DNA of 64,000 nt from Candidatus Latescibacterota bacterium (GTDB lineage: Bacteria; Latescibacterota; UBA2968; GCA-2709665). This document shows, piece after piece, positions 13,127 to 35,165 of this stretch (its first letter is position 1; the number at the start of each line of letters is the position of its first letter). The translations under genes were made by a program, and so were the position numbers. A model generated the notes under the pieces. It searched no databases. It worked only from the letters and a program-made list of their open reading frames with translations, and was not told the DNA's origin. The stretch lies in NCBI GenBank assembly GCA_021295655.1, contig JAGWBX010000024.1, positions 8,265-72,264 on the forward strand, given 5' to 3'.

Positions 13127-14098
13127 TCAGGGAGCCGGGGGAAGCAGATCGGAAACGAAAAGCCGGGAAACGTCGATCTTGCGGTCGATCAGCCCCAGAT
13201 CGAAGAGAACATCCTGGGTGTGCGACCACCGTTCCGCGGTCTGTGCGCCAAGCCCCAGGCGTTCCACGTCCGGGCTCATCAGGATGGGGATGAGCTTTTC
13301 GAAATTCGCCCGGTTGAATCTGGCGTCGCTCTCCGGGCGTTCGGCCATATATGCCGCCACCGCATCTTCCGGGTTGTCGACGGCGTAGCGCCAGCCCTTC
13401 ATACTGGCGTGGACGAATTTTCGCACGATGTCCGGGTTCTTTTTCAAATAGTCGGCGTTGACAATGATGTTGGTGCTGTAGAGGTCGATGCCGTATTGGG
13501 CAAATGAAATACGGGTTACCGCTCGACCGCGGAGTTCGACCGTTACCGGCTGGTCTTCGGTATAGCCCAGCATGGCGTCCACCTTGCCGGCAAGGAGGGG
13601 CGCCGGACTGGATTCCGTCATTCCCATCACCCGCACGCGTTCCTCGTCGATACCCGCCTTCTTGAGAAATGCCTGAAATTCCCGGTGGTTGGTGCCCCCG
13701 ATATTGACACCGACCCGTTTGCCAAACAGATCCTCCGGTTTCCGGATGTTATTCTCTTCCAACGCATACACCACAACCGGAGAGTGCTGGTTGATCACCG
13801 CGAGGGAGACCACGGGGATGTCCCTCGTGCGCGCGATCAGGGTGGCTGATCCACTGGAAATCCCGAGTTGATACTTGCCGCTGCCCACAAGACGCGCCGT
13901 CGTGGGCGCGCCGGTACCTTCGAGAATCTCGACCGAAATACCCACGGCATCGTAATATCCCTTCGCCTTCGCCGCGAAGAAACCCGCGTGCTCCATCTGC
14001 GCCTTCCAGTCCAGAAGCAACTGGATCCGCTGTGGCGTTTCGGGTGGTTTGCCGCAGGCGGTCAGAATTACAAGAAAGAGCCAGACCATACGTTTCAT
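13127..14098 (-). CDS. ABC transporter substrate-binding lipoprotein (NMT1/THI5-like)
   Basis: Lipobox 'LVILTAC', then 'IQLLLDWKAQMEHAGFFAAKAKGYY' typical of NitT/TauT-family binding proteins. GGAGG lies upstream of the ATG. Confidence 0.8.
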   Translation of the reverse strand: MKRMVWLFLVILTACGKPPETPQRIQLLLDWKAQMEHAGFFAAKAKGYYDAVGISVEILEGTGAPTTARLVGSGKYQLGISSGSATLIARTRDIPVVSLAVINQHSPVVVYALEENNIRKPEDLFGKRVGVNIGGTNHREFQAFLKKAGIDEERVRVMGMTESSPAPLLAGKVDAMLGYTEDQPVTVELRGRAVTRISFAQYGIDLYSTNIIVNADYLKKNPDIVRKFVHASMKGWRYAVDNPEDAVAAYMAERPESDARFNRANFEKLIPILMSPDVERLGLGAQTAERWSHTQDVLFDLGLIDRKIDVSRLFVSDLLPPAP

Positions 14099-14132
14099 CG
14101 GATTCCTCCAGTGAACGGTTCCGGAATGATGT

Positions 14133-14924
14133 CTATCGCCTGAGTGGTTCGTGGTAATCGCCCCAGCGTTTGAGCAGGATTTTTTCCAGGCCTTCCACAA
14201 TCAGGAAAAGGAGCGTGCCCATCGCGCCGAGTACAATCAACGCGGCGAACATGAGATCGGTAGCCAGTTCGGCGTTGGCCAGCCGCGTAAGATGCCCCAG
14301 CCCGGCGCTTGCGCCCACGAATTCTCCAACAACCGCGCCAATTACACTCAGGGTGATGCAGATTTTAAGGGCGGCGAAGAGATAGGGAATGGCGTGGGGC
14401 AGGCGGACTTTGATCAGTATCTGGCGGCGACCGGCGGAAAGCGCCCGCATCAGATCCAGAATAAGCGGGTCCACCGCCAGGAGGCCGCGTGTGGTGTTGA
14501 TAATGACCGGGAAAAATGAAATGAGCGCCGCGATGATCACCTTGGGGAACAGCCCGAGGCCGAACCAGACGATAAACAGCGGGGCGAGTGCTTCTTTGGG
14601 AAAGGTCTGGGATGAAATGACGATAGGGTACAGCATGCGCTCGATGATCGGAGAGCGCGCCATGACAATGGCGCCTGCCACGCCCGTACCGGCGCCGAGA
14701 AGAAAACCCCAGAGCGCTTCCTGCAGGGTCACCCAGGCATGGGACAAGAGCGTGTAGCGCGCCGAAACCAGTTTGACCAGGATTCGCGACGGCGCGGGCA
14801 GGATATAGTCTGCGATGTCCCACGCATAGACCAGCAGTTCCCAGATCCCGAGGGTGATGAGAACGAAAACGAGGGAGAGGCCGTACTCACGGATGAGGAC
14901 CCGAACGACGTAGACCGGAATCAC
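14133..14924 (-). CDS. ABC transporter permease (NitT/TauT family)
   Basis: The EAA-like loop 'ALSAGRRQILIKVRLPHAIPYLFAALK' marks the family. The GTG start at 14924 overlaps the TGA of the upstream gene (GTGA). Confidence 0.8.
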   Translation of the reverse strand: MIPVYVVRVLIREYGLSLVFVLITLGIWELLVYAWDIADYILPAPSRILVKLVSARYTLLSHAWVTLQEALWGFLLGAGTGVAGAIVMARSPIIERMLYPIVISSQTFPKEALAPLFIVWFGLGLFPKVIIAALISFFPVIINTTRGLLAVDPLILDLMRALSAGRRQILIKVRLPHAIPYLFAALKICITLSVIGAVVGEFVGASAGLGHLTRLANAELATDLMFAALIVLGAMGTLLFLIVEGLEKILLKRWGDYHEPLRR

Positions 14925-15298
14925 CGTTCGAACAGAATGATCTGGGCCTGAATCGAGCCGGCCTGGTTCTGGTAATCGGGGTTTTCGTTCATCGCCATAA
15001 ACAGTGGTCCTTCGTAAGGTGAGAAAAGGTCGAAATAGACCCCCGCCGCCATGGGCGGATTTTCCGATCCGACTCTGCAAATCAGGGCGCCCACGTTGGC
15101 GCCTGGCAGAAGGTAGTCGTCTCCGGCCAGGAGGCCTTCGATTCCGTTCGCGCCGCACCAGGTGATGGTTGCAGGACGCATCTCGGGCGACCAGATGCCT
15201 TCGGCGGACATCACGAGACGCTGGCCCTCTCGTACCCGCAGATACATCTCCTGCCAGATCGCATTTGGCCTGATGGTTTTGTTGATGGTCAGCGGCAT
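14921..15298 (-). CDS. PA-IL (LecA)-like lectin-fold domain protein
   Basis: 125 aa. The block order 'GQRLVMSAEG.W', 'VGALICRVGS' and 'GSIQAQIILFE' mirrors PA-IL ('GDVITIVAAGW', 'CGALVMKIGN', 'GSFSVNI'). Confidence 0.5.
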   Translation of the reverse strand: MPLTINKTIRPNAIWQEMYLRVREGQRLVMSAEGIWSPEMRPATITWCGANGIEGLLAGDDYLLPGANVGALICRVGSENPPMAAGVYFDLFSPYEGPLFMAMNENPDYQNQAGSIQAQIILFER

Positions 15299-15344
15299 GG
15301 GGACGTTTTCTCGTACATAGGTCTGAAAAAGGAACCCGGCAGGC

Positions 15345-15425
15345 AGAACACTGGCAGCCCGTTGTAAACGCCCGTCCGGGCTTTGGCCGGTCTTGCCTGC
15401 CAAGCGACATTATCAACGGACACTA
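15345..15425 (-). repeat. R1-E: hairpin element in the 5' leader of the lectin-like/ABC operon
   Basis: The minus strand reads TAGtgtccgttgataatgtcgcttggcaggcaagaccggccaaagcccggacgggcgtttacaacgggctgccagtgttct. Confidence 0.6.
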
Positions 15426-29751: not shown

Positions 29752-29915
29752 ATATCCAATTGTAAACTCCATAATCGCCTGAGCGGCCTCGCAACAGCGA
29801 TCGTTGCCTGGCCTGATCGAAGTTTTCAGTGAAAACGCGCCGGGCGGTGAATGACTTTCGCAGTGAACCGCGGGGATATGGGTTCGACGAGGCGGCGGGA
29901 TATGAAGTTGGTCAA

Positions 29916-30617
29916 ATGACAATGCTCTTTCTTCTGCTGTTTTTGTGCTTCCTGATCGTCCTCGCGCCCGTGCGTCTGTGGGCGCGAGGACGTAACGGCT
30001 CAGGGCGGGGACCGATCCTGGAAATCCGCGTGAGGCCGTGGATCGGACTGGCGGGTATCCGGCTGTTCCACACCGGCGGCGATTGGCGTATTGGCGCGCT
30101 ACTGGGATGGTGGACAGTGTGGGCCGCACCCTTGAGAAAGGGAGAAGATGGGAAAAAGAAGAAACGCGACCCCGGTGCGAGGGACGAGGCGGAAGCGGAC
30201 GTATCGGATGGTTTTTCGGCAAAGGTTGAGCGGTTCGCGCGGGCCGGACGGCGTTTAAGGACGCTGTCATTGCCCCTCAGGCGGTGTGCGTTACGTTTTC
30301 TGAGGGGTTTCCGTCTTCGCAGCATCAAATGCAGCGTAACGTTCGGCGCCTCCGATCCGGCCACGACCGGCCGGATCTACGGATACGTCATGGCCGCCTC
30401 CTCTCTGATTGGAGCAAAGGGAAGCATTCACGTGACGCCCGATTTCGAGTCACAGCGTCTGGACGGGGAAGCCCGGGTTGAAATTCGGATTTATCCCCAC
30501 AGGCTGTTGTTGGCATCCGTTTATTTCGGATGGCGCCTTGCGCTTGCGTGGTTTTCGGAACGACGCAACCGGAAACGGCGTGAGGAAGGCATTTTGGGGG
30601 CCGGCGCGACGAGTTGA
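29916..30617 (+). CDS. DUF2953 (YtfI-like) membrane-anchored protein
   Basis: N-terminal TM segment 'MLFLLLFLCFLIVLAP', basic linker, and 'VTFGASDPATTGRIYG...VTPDF'. It lies upstream of a GerW/YtfJ gene, as in the Bacillus ytfI-ytfJ pair. Confidence 0.5.
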   Translation: MTMLFLLLFLCFLIVLAPVRLWARGRNGSGRGPILEIRVRPWIGLAGIRLFHTGGDWRIGALLGWWTVWAAPLRKGEDGKKKKRDPGARDEAEADVSDGFSAKVERFARAGRRLRTLSLPLRRCALRFLRGFRLRSIKCSVTFGASDPATTGRIYGYVMAASSLIGAKGSIHVTPDFESQRLDGEARVEIRIYPHRLLLASVYFGWRLALAWFSERRNRKRREEGILGAGATS

Positions 30618-30638
30618 GCGGTCTTTAATGGAGGTATT

Positions 30639-31040
30639 ATGTCGGTTGAGGATCTCATCAGGACGGTGATGACGGAATTCCGCCAAATCGTCAAGGCGGA
30701 GACGGTTGTGGGAGAGCCGATCGAAATCGGGGGTACGGTTGTGGTACCCGTCTCCAGGATTTCTTTCGGATTCGGCGCGGGTGGCGGCGCGGACACGGCG
30801 GACGGCGGCGGGAGCGGCACGGGTGGTGGCGCATCCGTGGAACCCCTGGCATTTGTCGTGATTCGAGACGGAAAGGCCCAGATTCTTCCCGTCCAGGAAA
30901 AGGAAGGATCCATCAAGGGTCTGCTGGATCTGGCGCCCGACCTTCTGTCGAAAGTAAAGGCCTTTAAGGAGAAGCGAGACCGGAAGAAGGCTGAGGAGGA
31001 AGCCGACGCAGATTCCGGTGACGACGACGTGAGCGCCTAG
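30639..31040 (+). CDS. GerW/YtfJ family protein
   Basis: 'AETVVGEPIEIGGTVVVPVSRISFGFGAGGG' and 'EPLAFVVI' match the family. Confidence 0.7.
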   Translation: MSVEDLIRTVMTEFRQIVKAETVVGEPIEIGGTVVVPVSRISFGFGAGGGADTADGGGSGTGGGASVEPLAFVVIRDGKAQILPVQEKEGSIKGLLDLAPDLLSKVKAFKEKRDRKKAEEEADADSGDDDVSA

Positions 31041-31192: not shown

Positions 31193-32413
31193 ATGAACCG
31201 GCTTCTGCTGCTTATTCCAACGTCATCCTACCGAACCCATGATTTCATGGCAGCGGCGGCAGCACTCAATGTTGCCGTGGTCGTGGGAACAGACCGCCGC
31301 CAGGCGCTTGCGAGCCTGACCCCCGGAAAGACGCTCGCGTTGAACTTCGCCAGGCCGGCAGCCTCGGTTGGAAGAATCGTCGCCTATTCGGAGGAATACC
31401 CCGTCCGGGCGGTGGTGGGCGTGGACGACGAGACCGTCGTACTCGCAGCGATGGCCTGCGAGGCGCTCGGACTTCCGCACAATACGACGACGTCCGTACG
31501 GGCGTCCCGTTACAAACACGTGATGCGTCAGATACTTGCCGAAAAAGGCCTGCCCTCGCCGGGGTTCAGGCTTTTTTCAATTCGGGACGAACCGGCGGAA
31601 GCCGCCGCAACCGTCGACTATCCGTGCGTGCTGAAGCCGGTTTCGCTCTCCGCGAGCCGCGGCGTGATTCGGGCGGATCGTGAAGCGGATTTCGTGACTG
31701 CTTTCGATCGGATTCGGGCGTTGATTTCGGAATCCGGGAATAACGTGCACGAGGCAATTCTGGCGGAGGACTACATTCCCGGCCGGGAGGTCGCGCTGGA
31801 GGGTTTGCTGGTTGACGGTGAGCTTCACACCCTCGCATTGTTCGATAAACCGGACCCGCTGGACGGCCCTTATTTTGCCGAGACACTGTACATTACGCCG
31901 TCCCTGCTGCAGGAATGCGTGCAGGCGCGGATTCAGGACACTGCGCAGCAGGCTGCACTCGCCCTCGGATTGACCGTGGGGCCGGTGCATGCCGAACTGC
32001 GGCTGAACACGAGCGGCATCTACGTGGTGGAAATCGCGGCGCGATCCATCGGCGGGCTGTGTTCGCGTATATTGAGATTCGGCGCTGGCGTGTCGTTGGA
32101 GGAACTGATTCTGCGCCAGGCGACGGGTCGCTCCCCGATCGATTTGTGCAGGGAAAACACGGCGGCCGGGGTGATGATGCTTCCGGTGCCGAAGCCGGGA
32201 ACGCTCCGGTGCGTACGCGGTACGGCGGGCGCGCGGCGCGTACCGGGAATTGTCGACGTCGCGATCACCGTTCCGAGGGGGCATCCCGTTCAGCCGCTGC
32301 CCGAGGGAGACCGGTACCTGGGGTTCATCTTTGCACGCGGAAGGACACCAGAGGCCGTGGTAGCGGCGCTTCGTGAGGCCAATGGTCTGCTCGCCGTCGA
32401 GATCGAGGGTTGA
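31193..32413 (+). CDS. ATP-grasp domain protein (amino-acid-ligase-like)
   Basis: 406 aa. 'YPCVLKPVSLSASRGV', 'EDYIPGREVALEGL' and 'GPVHAELR' are ATP-grasp blocks. Confidence 0.7.
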   Translation: MNRLLLLIPTSSYRTHDFMAAAAALNVAVVVGTDRRQALASLTPGKTLALNFARPAASVGRIVAYSEEYPVRAVVGVDDETVVLAAMACEALGLPHNTTTSVRASRYKHVMRQILAEKGLPSPGFRLFSIRDEPAEAAATVDYPCVLKPVSLSASRGVIRADREADFVTAFDRIRALISESGNNVHEAILAEDYIPGREVALEGLLVDGELHTLALFDKPDPLDGPYFAETLYITPSLLQECVQARIQDTAQQAALALGLTVGPVHAELRLNTSGIYVVEIAARSIGGLCSRILRFGAGVSLEELILRQATGRSPIDLCRENTAAGVMMLPVPKPGTLRCVRGTAGARRVPGIVDVAITVPRGHPVQPLPEGDRYLGFIFARGRTPEAVVAALREANGLLAVEIEG

Positions 32414-32469: not shown

Positions 32470-33897
32470 TCAGACAAGAGCGAACTGCTCTTCGGTTGGC
32501 TCCGCTCAGCAGTACCAGGGTTCGGTAAGGCGGGGGAGCGAAAGGCGGGCTGAGGTCGCATCGAAATCGGCGTCCGGGACAGGGCGTTCCACCAACCCGT
32601 ACACGTGCGACCGTATCCTGCGGAAGATCTCTCCCCGTGCGGCATCCCGGTTCTGAAGCCGTGTGACGAGCCGGGACAGTTCGTGCTGGAGCCGGTCCAG
32701 GCGGGCGTCGGCATGCGCCCAGGGGTACGACAGTGCTGCCGGCGCGAACGGACCCACCAGGTCGCGGACCTCGGCAAGATTCAGCAGCTCTGATCCTCCG
32801 GGAATAAGCAGCCGGATGGTGAGCTGAACGGGCGAGACATGCTCGATCAGATCGAGGTCGGCGAGTGTATCCAGAAAGCGGGCATATCCCTCCAACGTGA
32901 TCCATGGCGTGAACGGGATAAACGTCGGATTCATCACCAGCCCGTGTTTATTGAAGAGGTCCACAACTTCGAGGAAGTCGTCTACTGTATGGCCCTTGTC
33001 CAGCAGCGCGAGAACACGGCTGTCAAGGGACTCGACGGCGGTTGTGACGAGTGCGCACCCGGTGTCTCTGATGCGGGGCAGATTGCGGCGATATTTCAGC
33101 AGATGTTCGATCTTGACGGTGATGTCGTACGTGAGGTCGGGAAATCTGCCATGGAGCTCTTCGACAAGCGGCAGGGCGTGGCCGATGCCGTTGAAGAAGT
33201 CGGGATCGCCAAACGTGATATGGCCCGCACCCGCGGCGACCTGTCTTTCAATGTCGTCCAGTACGATTTCAGGTTGTACAATCCGGAACCTCCCGCCGTA
33301 CACGGGCACCACGGGACAGTGGCGACAGAGATGTTTGCAGCCGCGGCTTGCCTCTGTATAGCCGACGGTTTTCAGATGCCCGTCACTGGTGGAAAGTCTT
33401 GCGTAGCTGGGCAAGTCCGGAAGGCCTGTGCGGTCAGGTGGAAGAAAACGCTGTCTGGCGAGGGAAACGACGGGTTCTTCCTGGTCTCCGATGGTGCCGG
33501 GCGCCCCCCGCAGACGATTGCACAGCTGAAGCAGACCGTTTTCGAATTCGCCACCGAGGATGGTCTGCGCCCCCAGGCTTCTAAGGAAGGATTCGTTAAC
33601 CGAAGCATAGAGACCATAGAAACAGAGGTGCGTGTTGGTATTCAGCTTTCGGGATCTGGCGACCAGCGGAACGGCAAGGCGCGTCGCGGTATGCATTGGT
33701 ACGTAGAAAGCCACCAGATCGGCGTCGCGGACGTCTTCGTCAGGGAAGTCTTCTATCGAAACGTCGGCCTGGACCACGTCGATGCCCGCCCTCCGCAGCC
33801 ACGCAGCCGGCGACGCCAGACCGAACGGCTGCCGACCCAGTTCGTAGGTGGAAACGAGTACGGCTTTGAAAGGACGCGATCGGTTAATGGCCGTCAT
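32470..33897 (-). CDS. B12-binding-domain radical SAM protein, CUAEP-tail type, with TGA at 32506-32508 read as selenocysteine
   Basis: 'CKHLCRHCPV' is the radical SAM cluster motif. The ORF track ends '...LTEPWYC' at a TGA, and the same frame continues A-E-P-T-E-E-Q-F-A-L-V to a second TGA at 32470-32472. Confidence 0.7.
32476..32492 (-). promoter_or_regulatory. candidate bacterial SECIS hairpin
   Basis: The RNA reads AAGAGC-AGUUC-GCUCUU: a 6-bp stem starting about 13 nt after the UGA, with GU in the apical loop. Confidence 0.4.
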
Positions 33898-33909: not shown

Positions 33910-33957
33910 CAAAAAATAACGGCAGACAACGGGGAGGCCCCCATGAAGTCTGCCGTT
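33910..33957 (-). terminator. strong intrinsic terminator after nfuA
   Basis: The minus strand reads AACGGCAGAC-(20 nt with inner GGGG/CCCC)-GTCTGCCGTT-ATTTTTT: a perfect 10-bp stem and a T-run ending about 13 nt before the radical SAM ATG. Confidence 0.6.
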
Positions 33958-33972
33958 TGTTGTGAACACACG

Positions 33973-34557
33973 TTATTTTGAGGTCTGGTAGTAGGGGTTT
34001 GTGCCGTCCGCGTGTTCGGTCACGTCGAGGATTTCTTCAATTTCCGGCACAGCCTCCTTGATGAGGACTTCAACCCCCTGCTTGAGCGTCACGTCCACCA
34101 TTCCGCAACCCTGACATCCGCCGCCGAACTGGACGTAAGCCTTGTTGTCCTTTACGTCGATAAGTGAGATTTGGCCGCCGTGCATGGCCACGCTGGGGTT
34201 GATCTTCTCGTCGATGATGTTCTGGATCTTTTCGGCGGCCGTGCCCTTCAGATGCGGAGGCACCTTGTTGGGATTCTCGATTTTGAATCCCCTGCCCATG
34301 AGGCTGTCCACAAAGTCCAGTGTAATGTGCTCGGCATAGGGCGCGCTTTCCGGGTCTACGTAGATGTTGAACCCGTCGAACGGCGTAACGGTGTCGTCTT
34401 CCTCTTCCTGGCCGCTGGCAACAAACGCGAGTCGGTAGTTGGCCTGCAGCGGCGAGACGGCTTCGGCCTTGACCCGAACGCCAATGATGTCCGACTCCTG
34501 GCTCCCGATCAGGTTGACAACTTCCTTCTGCGCGGCTTCCGTAACGGTGATATTCAT
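33973..34557 (-). CDS. nfuA: NfuA-type Fe-S cluster carrier (degenerate A-type N-domain plus Nfu C-domain)
   Basis: 'INPSVAMHGGQISLIDV...FGGGCQGCGMVDVTLK' carries the CxxC Nfu motif. Confidence 0.8.
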   Translation of the reverse strand: MNITVTEAAQKEVVNLIGSQESDIIGVRVKAEAVSPLQANYRLAFVASGQEEEDDTVTPFDGFNIYVDPESAPYAEHITLDFVDSLMGRGFKIENPNKVPPHLKGTAAEKIQNIIDEKINPSVAMHGGQISLIDVKDNKAYVQFGGGCQGCGMVDVTLKQGVEVLIKEAVPEIEEILDVTEHADGTNPYYQTSK

Positions 34558-34670: not shown

Positions 34671-35165
34671 TCAGGATTCGAACGCCACGGTTGACCGTGC
34701 GGGTTGTTCCCGGTCTATCTTTTCCTGGATCTTCATCAGCGCGGACAGCAGATCTTCGGGCCGGGGGGGACAGCCGGGCACGTAGACGTCGACCGGCAGA
34801 AACTGGTCCACACCCTGTACCAGCGTATAGGTATTGAAGACACCCCCTGACGATGCGCACGCCCCCATGGAAATTACCCACTTCGGATCCGGCATCTGGT
34901 CATAAATCTTCTTGAGTACCGGCATCATTTTAATGGATATCCGGCCCGATACGATGAGCAGGTCGGACTGGCGGGGCGAGAATCTCACGGCTTCCGCGCC
35001 GAACCGGGCCATATCGAAGCGCCCGGAGAGCGTGGCCATCATTTCGATGGCGCAGCAAGCCGTGCCGAACGGCATCGGCCAGAGGGATGACTTGCGTGCC
35101 CAGTTGATCATTTTGGACATAGTGGTCGTGATAACGTTGTCGCCAAGGCCGGTTTCAAGTCCCAT
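34671..35165 (-). CDS. NuoB-like protein (orphan paralog of the NADH-quinone oxidoreductase 20-kDa subunit)
   Basis: '[18 protein letters not shown]', 'MGACASSGG' and '[13 protein letters not shown]' keep all N2-cluster Cys positions. Confidence 0.75.

Follow-up and report, generated by a model that had tools for sequence, protein, structure and literature searches.

Locus and family membership

The DNA analysed here is a 64,000-nucleotide (nt) stretch from a Candidatus Latescibacterota bacterium (contig JAGWBX010000024.1 of assembly GCA_021295655.1, positions 8,265 to 72,264 of the forward strand), referred to at its full length as the window. Our subject is a gene on its minus strand for a radical S-adenosylmethionine (SAM) enzyme, in which the called open reading frame (ORF) ends at a TGA codon that very probably encodes selenocysteine (Sec, U). 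The called ORF occupies 32506..33897, running from an ATG at 33897 to the TGA at 32506-32508, and encodes 463 amino acids with the C-terminus ...LPRLTEPWYC. Past this TGA the same frame continues as GCG GAG CCA ACC GAA GAG CAG TTC GCT CTT GTC TGA, which translates to AEPTEEQFALV followed by a stop, and the readthrough product has 475 residues with the context C463-U464-A-E-P (W-Y-C-U-A-E-P). The features of the gene itself are the following.

32470..33897, minus strand: full-length gene for a predicted CUAEP-tail radical SAM selenoprotein of 475 amino acids with U464, including the terminal stop TGA at 32470-32472 (from translation)
33316..33339, minus strand: CxxxCxxC motif (C187-K-H-L-C191-R-H-C194) of the radical SAM [4Fe-4S] cluster (from Pfam and alignments)
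32506..32508, minus strand: in-frame UGA predicted to be read as Sec, U464 (from the aligned codon, which is TGA or TGC/TGT in relatives)
32473..32505, minus strand: tail AEPTEEQFALV, probably translated, after the Sec codon (from peptide conservation and the tails of Cys forms)

An initial annotation, made from the letters of the window, had described the end of the ORF and the continuing frame correctly in every letter and coordinate; the position 32470 at which it began the gene is the true 3' end, and the string CKHLCRHCPV to which it drew attention is present at 33316-33339. The three cysteines C187, C191, and C194 are invariant in homolog alignments A1 and A4, and the Pfam Radical_SAM domain (PF04055) matches residues 184-330 with 46.3 bits against a cutoff of 29.5. 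In a family profile scan with U entered as C, the protein matched NCBIfam NF040546 (rSAM_CUAEP, "CUAEP/CCAEP-tail radical SAM (seleno)protein") at 611.2 bits, above the cutoff of 500, with residues 13-473 aligned to profile positions 2-467 of 468, tail included, and the C-U/C-A-E-P motif of the family is present approximately 12 residues before the C-terminus. The initial annotation had pointed to a family of this name; it does exist, and the window protein belongs to it. It is clear from these results that the window gene is an ordinary member of an already curated family, the selenoprotein status of which is known and not new. Several homologs already carry the family name among NCBI protein names, and the family has been entered as an uncharacterised CU-motif selenoprotein (Haft 2022, preprint), in the sole paper mentioning it that our literature search found.

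The nearest named relatives are proteins from metagenome-assembled genomes of Gemmatimonadota and Latescibacterota, with 80-86% identity, and the identical 463-residue call with the same neighbours is found in two further assemblies (L085, JGI 3300002734, contig PetF_10000941; L086, ENA ERZ15614322). A homolog database search returned at least 8000 proteins at E < 1e-20, most of which, as called, stop exactly at ...EPW[YF]C, with a minority (P0111, P0113, P0043, and others) running on as C-C-A-E-P-T-E-E-Q-F-A... A sequence search of the PDB found no close solved relative of the radical SAM protein.

Recoding of the TGA codon

When species-representative genomes were scanned, the radical SAM gene turned up at 598 loci or more, and 80 of these were taken for comparison. 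At these 80 loci, the codon that follows ...EPW[YF]C is TGA in 62, TGC in 13, and TGT in 5, and it is never TAA or TAG. In all 62 TGA loci, the frame stays open past the TGA and encodes A-E-P-T/A-x-x-Q-..., and tblastn matches in relatives cross the TGA to reach residues 472-475. The proteins that have Cys at this position carry the same tail (EPWYCCAEPT.. or CCAEPTEEQFA..). For the statistics of the tail and of the hairpin described below, the Sec-form set comprised 61 sequences (60 loci and the window) and the Cys-form set 18. Across codons +1 to +4 after the UGA, the share of the 61 Sec forms with a base other than the commonest one is 3.3%, 0.8%, and 44% at codon positions 1, 2, and 3, respectively, and five loci (L001-L003, L007, and L075) have a tail peptide identical to that of the window with nucleotide differences at third positions only. 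A tail that keeps its frame with variation nearly confined to third positions indicates a translated sequence under purifying selection and not a region beyond a true stop. Among the findings that the initial annotation had named as speaking against a selenoprotein are homologs that uniformly end at the Cys and a lack of conservation past the TGA. Neither of these was found, as the Cys-form homologs continue with the tail and in-frame conservation holds at every one of the 62 TGA loci.

Two other ways of accounting for the codon were considered. That the TGA encodes a standard amino acid under an altered code, or reflects an error of sequencing or the decay of a pseudogene, has in its favour the in-frame TGA itself and nothing more, and it is hardly credible given that many confidently identified genes of the window end at TGA (nuoL, sufD, and gamma-glutamyltransferase), that the identical TGA occurs in independent assemblies and in 62 genomes, and that the alternative residue at this position is Cys rather than Trp or Gly. 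The TGA might instead be a true stop, with ...EPWYC as the C-terminus of the enzyme and the 'tail' and hairpin left untranslated, for example as a small 3' stem-loop. Every gene caller does end the protein at residue 463, the hairpin taken alone is not unusual, and the window contains no Sec machinery. However, in different phyla the 33 nt past the TGA preserve the reading frame and still encode AEPT..Q.., changing at third positions only, 18 of the 80 relatives combine a Cys codon with the same tail, TAA and TAG never replace TGA, and the curated family model itself includes the tail, all of which makes a true stop very improbable. The alternation of TGA with Cys codons, the coding character of the tail, and a hairpin specific to the Sec forms together support the proposal of the initial annotation, a probable selenoprotein with an ORF call that is too short, and we consider it highly likely, from comparison of sequences, that U464 is a genuine Sec site. 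Because the UGA would be read as Sec, gene callers drop the last 12 residues of the protein.

A hairpin in the tail coding sequence

The general model of the bacterial selenocysteine insertion sequence (SECIS) element (Zhang and Gladyshev) is a stem-loop in the coding region with a G in its apical loop approximately 16-37 nt from the UGA. The window has the following candidate for such an element.

32476..32492, minus strand: SECIS-type hairpin AAGAGC/AGUUC/GCUCUU, beginning 13 nt past the UGA (+17..+33), with the loop G at 32485 and the loop U at 32483

Numbered from the U of the UGA, the hairpins of the Sec forms close on C22 and fall into two registers. In the first, found in 35 sequences including the window, positions 15-22 are paired with 28-35 around a 5-nt loop of the form A-G-K-U-N, and in the second, found in 26 sequences, the partners of 15-22 are 27-34 and the loop is A-G-U-U. 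Every Sec form has a hairpin at this distance, whereas the Cys forms lack it. Uninterrupted stems average 5.7 base pairs (bp) over the 61 Sec forms versus 1.4 bp over the 18 Cys forms (Mann-Whitney p = 1.6e-9), and folding energies separate the two forms likewise. In both alignments, which were ungapped and not fitted to structure, 5 of the 8 pairs show substitutions on both sides, with compensatory pairs at three to five stem positions, and in covariation score as well as in the share of paired cells the alignments exceed all 500 shuffles and all slid registers. Furthermore, G24 and U26 are invariant in the Sec forms, all of which use CAG for the Gln codon that contributes G24, with CAA in several Cys forms. 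The hairpin that the initial annotation had picked out 13 nt after the TGA is thus present in the minus strand, and its suggestion that this is a SECIS element agrees with the Sec-form-specific stem, the compensatory changes, and the invariant loop G and U. The comparison supports a hairpin that would behave as a SECIS element, with a stem of 6-8 bp inside the tail coding sequence.

Some results for the hairpin count against this interpretation. The 81-nt fold around the window hairpin has z = -0.56, so that the hairpin alone is within chance, and of the TGA trinucleotides in the window, approximately 13% have, at a suitable distance, a stem of 6 bp or more whose loop contains a G; the significance of the hairpin thus comes only from the comparison with relatives. 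An Rfam search, with the window at the gathering threshold and the site at E up to 10, returned neither a SECIS nor any other relevant match, which is expected for short, family-specific elements. When the window sequence is folded by itself, the minimum-energy structure is not the hairpin but a pairing between the UGA region and that of the loop, a pairing that by eye fails in the second hairpin class. We found no earlier description in the literature of a two-register SECIS element with covariation.

Selenocysteine machinery and other selenoprotein signs

The search for Sec machinery likewise yielded results that do not favour recoding. There is no tRNA gene in the 64-kb window and no tRNA-Sec in 60 loci according to ARAGORN, no selA, selB, or selD gene was found in the window either by NCBIfam scans of 40 ORFs or by tblastn with the Escherichia coli SelA, SelB, and SelD proteins, and none of the 80 loci contains selA, selB, or selD. 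A window lacking this machinery says nothing about the remaining genome, and the Sec machinery of the organism is assumed here. A literature search on Sec use in Gemmatimonadota returned nothing usable.

A codon-usage screen of in-frame TGAs for a second selenoprotein gene in the window gave no credible candidate, and its top match proved to be merely two adjacent genes sharing a frame. As a separate observation, the genes at 13127-15416 (minus strand), which encode a substrate-binding protein and a permease of an SsuA/SsuC-type ATP-binding cassette transporter, match the SaoX and SaoP models, which stem from a selenoprotein-containing system, although at 45 and 106 bits these matches are far under the cutoffs of 300 and 295 and probably reflect general family similarity only.

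A selenocysteine form in Thermomicrobium roseum

A Sec form of the gene is also found in a cultivable organism, Thermomicrobium roseum DSM 5159, as TRD_RS12835 on the megaplasmid NC_011961.1 (locus L081, 9366-9450). In the PLSDB gene table, this protein ends in ...ESWFC; the next codons are TGA GCG GAG CCG, corresponding to U-A-E-P, and the frame runs on as AEPLEDPSGPVASQV... A hairpin, GGACC-CGUCG-GGUCC, lies at the usual distance from the TGA. The neighbours of TRD_RS12835 are an aminotransferase gene and a gene for a major facilitator superfamily transporter, with no ATP-grasp gene, and in a tblastn search of the plasmid collection with SelA the T. roseum megaplasmid was not among the 40 matches listed. 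No earlier description of a Sec form in T. roseum DSM 5159 was found. The finding has a practical consequence for annotation, as the public assemblies and the PLSDB table end the protein at least 12 residues early and thereby lose its most distinctive residue, an error that should be corrected.

Gene neighbourhood

Three features flank the radical SAM gene in the window.

31193..32413, plus strand (convergent): ATP-grasp gene of the L-amino-acid-ligase type, 406 amino acids (Pfam ATP-grasp_4, LAL_C2, and ATPgrasp_N)
33973..34557, minus strand: gene for an NfuA-type Fe-S cluster carrier (TIGR03341, E = 4e-47), directly upstream of the radical SAM gene and closing the suf operon
33918..33957, minus strand: terminator-like hairpin followed by a U-run (to approximately 33911), in the gap from the nfuA stop to the radical SAM ATG (folding free energy -35.8 kcal/mol, z = -5.15)

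The ATP-grasp protein is most similar to the L-amino acid ligase BL00235 (PDB 3vot, E = 4e-36), its closest solved relative, and to BacD, and BL00235 has been described as making Met-Gly and Met-Met. Among the 62 loci with more than 1.6 kb of downstream sequence, an ortholog of the ATP-grasp gene is adjacent in 45, including 34 of 48 Sec forms and 11 of 14 Cys forms, and across loci it is mostly co-directional with the radical SAM gene and immediately downstream of it. Our literature search found no described pairing of an L-amino-acid ligase with a radical SAM selenoprotein and none of ArsL with an ATP-grasp protein, and the conserved L-amino-acid-ligase partner is a new observation.

Public assemblies call the nfuA product at 194 amino acids. 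Counting the window, 14 loci spread over several phyla have this gene immediately before the radical SAM gene and in the same orientation. The hairpin and U-run between nfuA and the radical SAM gene leave only approximately 10 nt before the radical SAM ATG. In L001-L003 the hairpin is conserved, though its inner stem differs; a role as terminator or attenuator, setting the radical SAM gene apart from the suf/nfuA transcript, is possible. A third recurrent neighbour is a DUF169 (PF02596) gene, with a product of approximately 238 amino acids, which in 14 of the 80 loci either adjoins the radical SAM gene or separates it from the ATP-grasp gene; these loci include L008, L015, L016, L028, L037, L042, L043, L048, L052, L057, and L063, where it is just downstream of the radical SAM gene. 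There is no DUF169 gene at the window locus, and a search of the DUF169 literature returned nothing usable.

Other conserved neighbour clusters were set aside. Several apparent ones in Acidobacteriota are probably outside the system, the upstream clusters of L041, the one such locus read, being shadow ORFs of an aconitase gene, and clusters resembling zwf and glk by sequence were treated as probable lineage synteny. Two further observations concern the surroundings of the flanking genes in the window. At 34671-35165 (minus strand), a stand-alone NuoB-like gene (PF01058) lies at the end of the suf operon between an Rrf2 regulator gene and nfuA, well away from the nuo operon at approximately 43.7-53 kb. 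At 29829-31040 (plus strand), a DUF2953 gene and a homolog of the GerW/YtfJ 'sporulation protein' lie directly upstream of the ATP-grasp gene; sporulation is not known in the Gemmatimonadota-like lineage.

Predicted fold and possible function

An AlphaFold model of a Cys-form homolog is confident, with a predicted local distance difference test score (pLDDT) of 88.5, a predicted template modelling score (pTM) of 0.89, and pLDDT values of 75-83 in the tail. The best structural matches of this model are AprD4, MgmA, TsrM, and OxsB, and it also resembles MiaB, which points to the layout of radical SAM enzymes that begin with a Rossmann domain resembling those that bind B12. The initial annotation had read the N-terminal half as that of a B12-binding-domain radical SAM enzyme; this holds at the level of the modelled fold, and the match to the Pfam B12-binding domain (PF02310), at 20.1 bits, is under the cutoff of 32.1. 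Of the structural matches, AprD4 is not known to use cobalamin.

The second-best family for the window protein, after its own, is ArsL (NF040542, RCCLKC-tail), which matches residues 13-405 with 273.1 bits and shows approximately 34% identity over approximately 400 residues. ArsL cleaves SAM reductively at the C-gamma-S bond to give methylthioadenosine (MTA) and a 3-amino-3-carboxypropyl (ACP) radical, which is attached to As(III), and its described reactions list ArsL, SAM, and dithionite only. The RCCLKC tail of ArsL binds arsenic and not an auxiliary cluster, and without the tail only 2-aminobutyrate forms; according to a later ArsL preprint, the arsenic is held by all three tail cysteines. 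ArsL is the closest characterised relative, and by analogy we infer a tail role of the ArsL type for the window family.

The following sequence of events might be envisaged. SelB and tRNA-Sec would decode the UGA at 32506-32508 as Sec, directed by the hairpin in the tail coding sequence, and NfuA would supply the [4Fe-4S] cluster. By analogy with ArsL, the Cys-Sec (or Cys-Cys) tail could then act as a flexible arm that binds a soft atom or chalcogen adduct and moves it to the active site, where a SAM-derived radical or fragment would join the tail-held atom, the new carbon-heteroatom bond yielding a methionine-like amino acid. This amino acid would in turn be condensed into a dipeptide by the adjacent L-amino-acid ligase. 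We regard this model, with its ArsL-like tail, methionine-like product, ligase, and NfuA, as tentative, possible but somewhat short of an even chance.

A number of findings tell against the model. The match to the ArsL family, at 273.1 bits, is far under the membership cutoff of 450, and in an alignment with Pseudomonas amygdali ArsL the RCCLKC motif is absent, its place being taken by the window tail CUAEPTEEQFALV. When the P. amygdali ars proteins were compared by tblastn with the window and the 80 loci, there were no matches except for one methyltransferase match in L010; with no arsenic genes nearby, arsenite is an unlikely candidate for an ArsL-like substrate. In the window the ligase gene is convergent and not co-transcribed with the radical SAM gene, and 17 of the 62 loci have no adjacent ligase. 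Sequence cannot tell cleavage of SAM to an ACP radical from cleavage to a 5'-deoxyadenosyl radical, and our literature search found no publication on the activity of the family.

The main rival to this model accepts a real selenoprotein but sees the Cys-Sec pair as a redox-active selenenylsulfide tail on an enzyme with conventional 5'-deoxyadenosyl chemistry, possibly with cobalamin. The pair would deliver or remove electrons, or resolve an intermediate, as in thioredoxin reductase, and would not hold the substrate atom. Vicinal Cys and Sec residues close to a flexible C-terminus typify mobile redox tails such as that of thioredoxin reductase, and the window protein has such a pair near its C-terminus. 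The fold matches to B12-type radical SAM enzymes and to AprD4, the lack of metalloid genes nearby, and an invariant core cysteine, C281, that is absent from ArsL are also in keeping with a redox tail. On the other hand, in ArsL, the nearest characterised homolog, the equivalent tail binds the substrate atom and the radical formed is ACP, the B12-binding match in Pfam is sub-threshold, and CU motifs have been tied to heavy-atom contact (Haft 2022, preprint). On balance, we find a redox tail less likely than not.

Returning to the model with an ArsL-like tail, a broader proposal would be that the ArsL-like radical SAM enzyme with its Cys-Sec tail and the L-amino-acid ligase, often with NfuA or DUF169, form a widespread two-gene module that represents an undescribed pathway, which we put forward as speculation that is unlikely to prove right in full. 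It is just as speculative, and as improbable, that this pathway combines an ACP radical with a tail-held chalcogen or soft atom to give a new methionine- or homocysteine-like amino acid and, from it, a dipeptide metabolite. If this were true, the dipeptide of the module would be a cofactor, a low-molecular-weight thiol or selenol, or an antimetabolite. At least 598 species-representative genomes carry the radical SAM enzyme, and databases list over 8000 such proteins; the carriers are soil, groundwater, and possibly sponge-associated bacteria.

The selenoprotein status of the family has been curated by NCBI and appears in one preprint, and the family is large with no assigned function. In the lineage of the window, the radical SAM gene adjoins core Fe-S assembly genes, and ArsL, the only characterised relative, carries out an unusual carbon-heteroatom bond formation via an ACP radical. 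Three additions make the function of the family testable: an L-amino-acid ligase as conserved partner, a SECIS element defined for this family, and a cultivable carrier of the Sec form.

Comparison with known systems

Set against the curated family NF040546, the window protein is a typical member with no substantive difference, and the position of its Sec alternates between Sec and Cys as in its relatives. The hairpin resembles bacterial SECIS elements, those of the fdhF type and the general model alike, in being a stem-loop in the coding region soon after the UGA, with a loop G (here a G and a U) approximately 20 nt from the UGA, and in being present only together with the UGA codon; it differs from them in that the element of the window family is very short (6-8 bp), occurs in two registers with a 5-nt or 4-nt loop, and has no Rfam match. 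The partner in the window shares the ATP-grasp_4 and LAL_C2 domains of BL00235 and BacD, although its similarity to these ligases is only moderate.

The adjacent Cys-Sec pair is shared with the CU-motif selenoproteins HgcA, SaoL/MerB-like proteins, and MerT variants, for which heavy-atom contact is proposed, and the pair in the tail is shared with thioredoxin reductase, where it is a mobile redox centre. HgcA, SaoL/MerB-like proteins, MerT, and thioredoxin reductase, however, all have folds unrelated to that of the window protein, and there is no sign at this locus of mercury, arsenic, or thioredoxin-type chemistry.

ArsL is homologous to the window protein and has the same domain layout, with a Cys-rich C-terminal tail at the same place, its "CCLKC" aligning with C-C/C-U. 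The two families nevertheless differ in three respects. The tail of the CUAEP family offers two chalcogen ligands and that of ArsL three; the CUAEP family has the invariant core C281, within a T-G-C motif, where ArsL has Leu; and the genes of the window family lie without arsM, arsQ, arsN, or other ars genes nearby, their usual partner being instead an L-amino-acid ligase.

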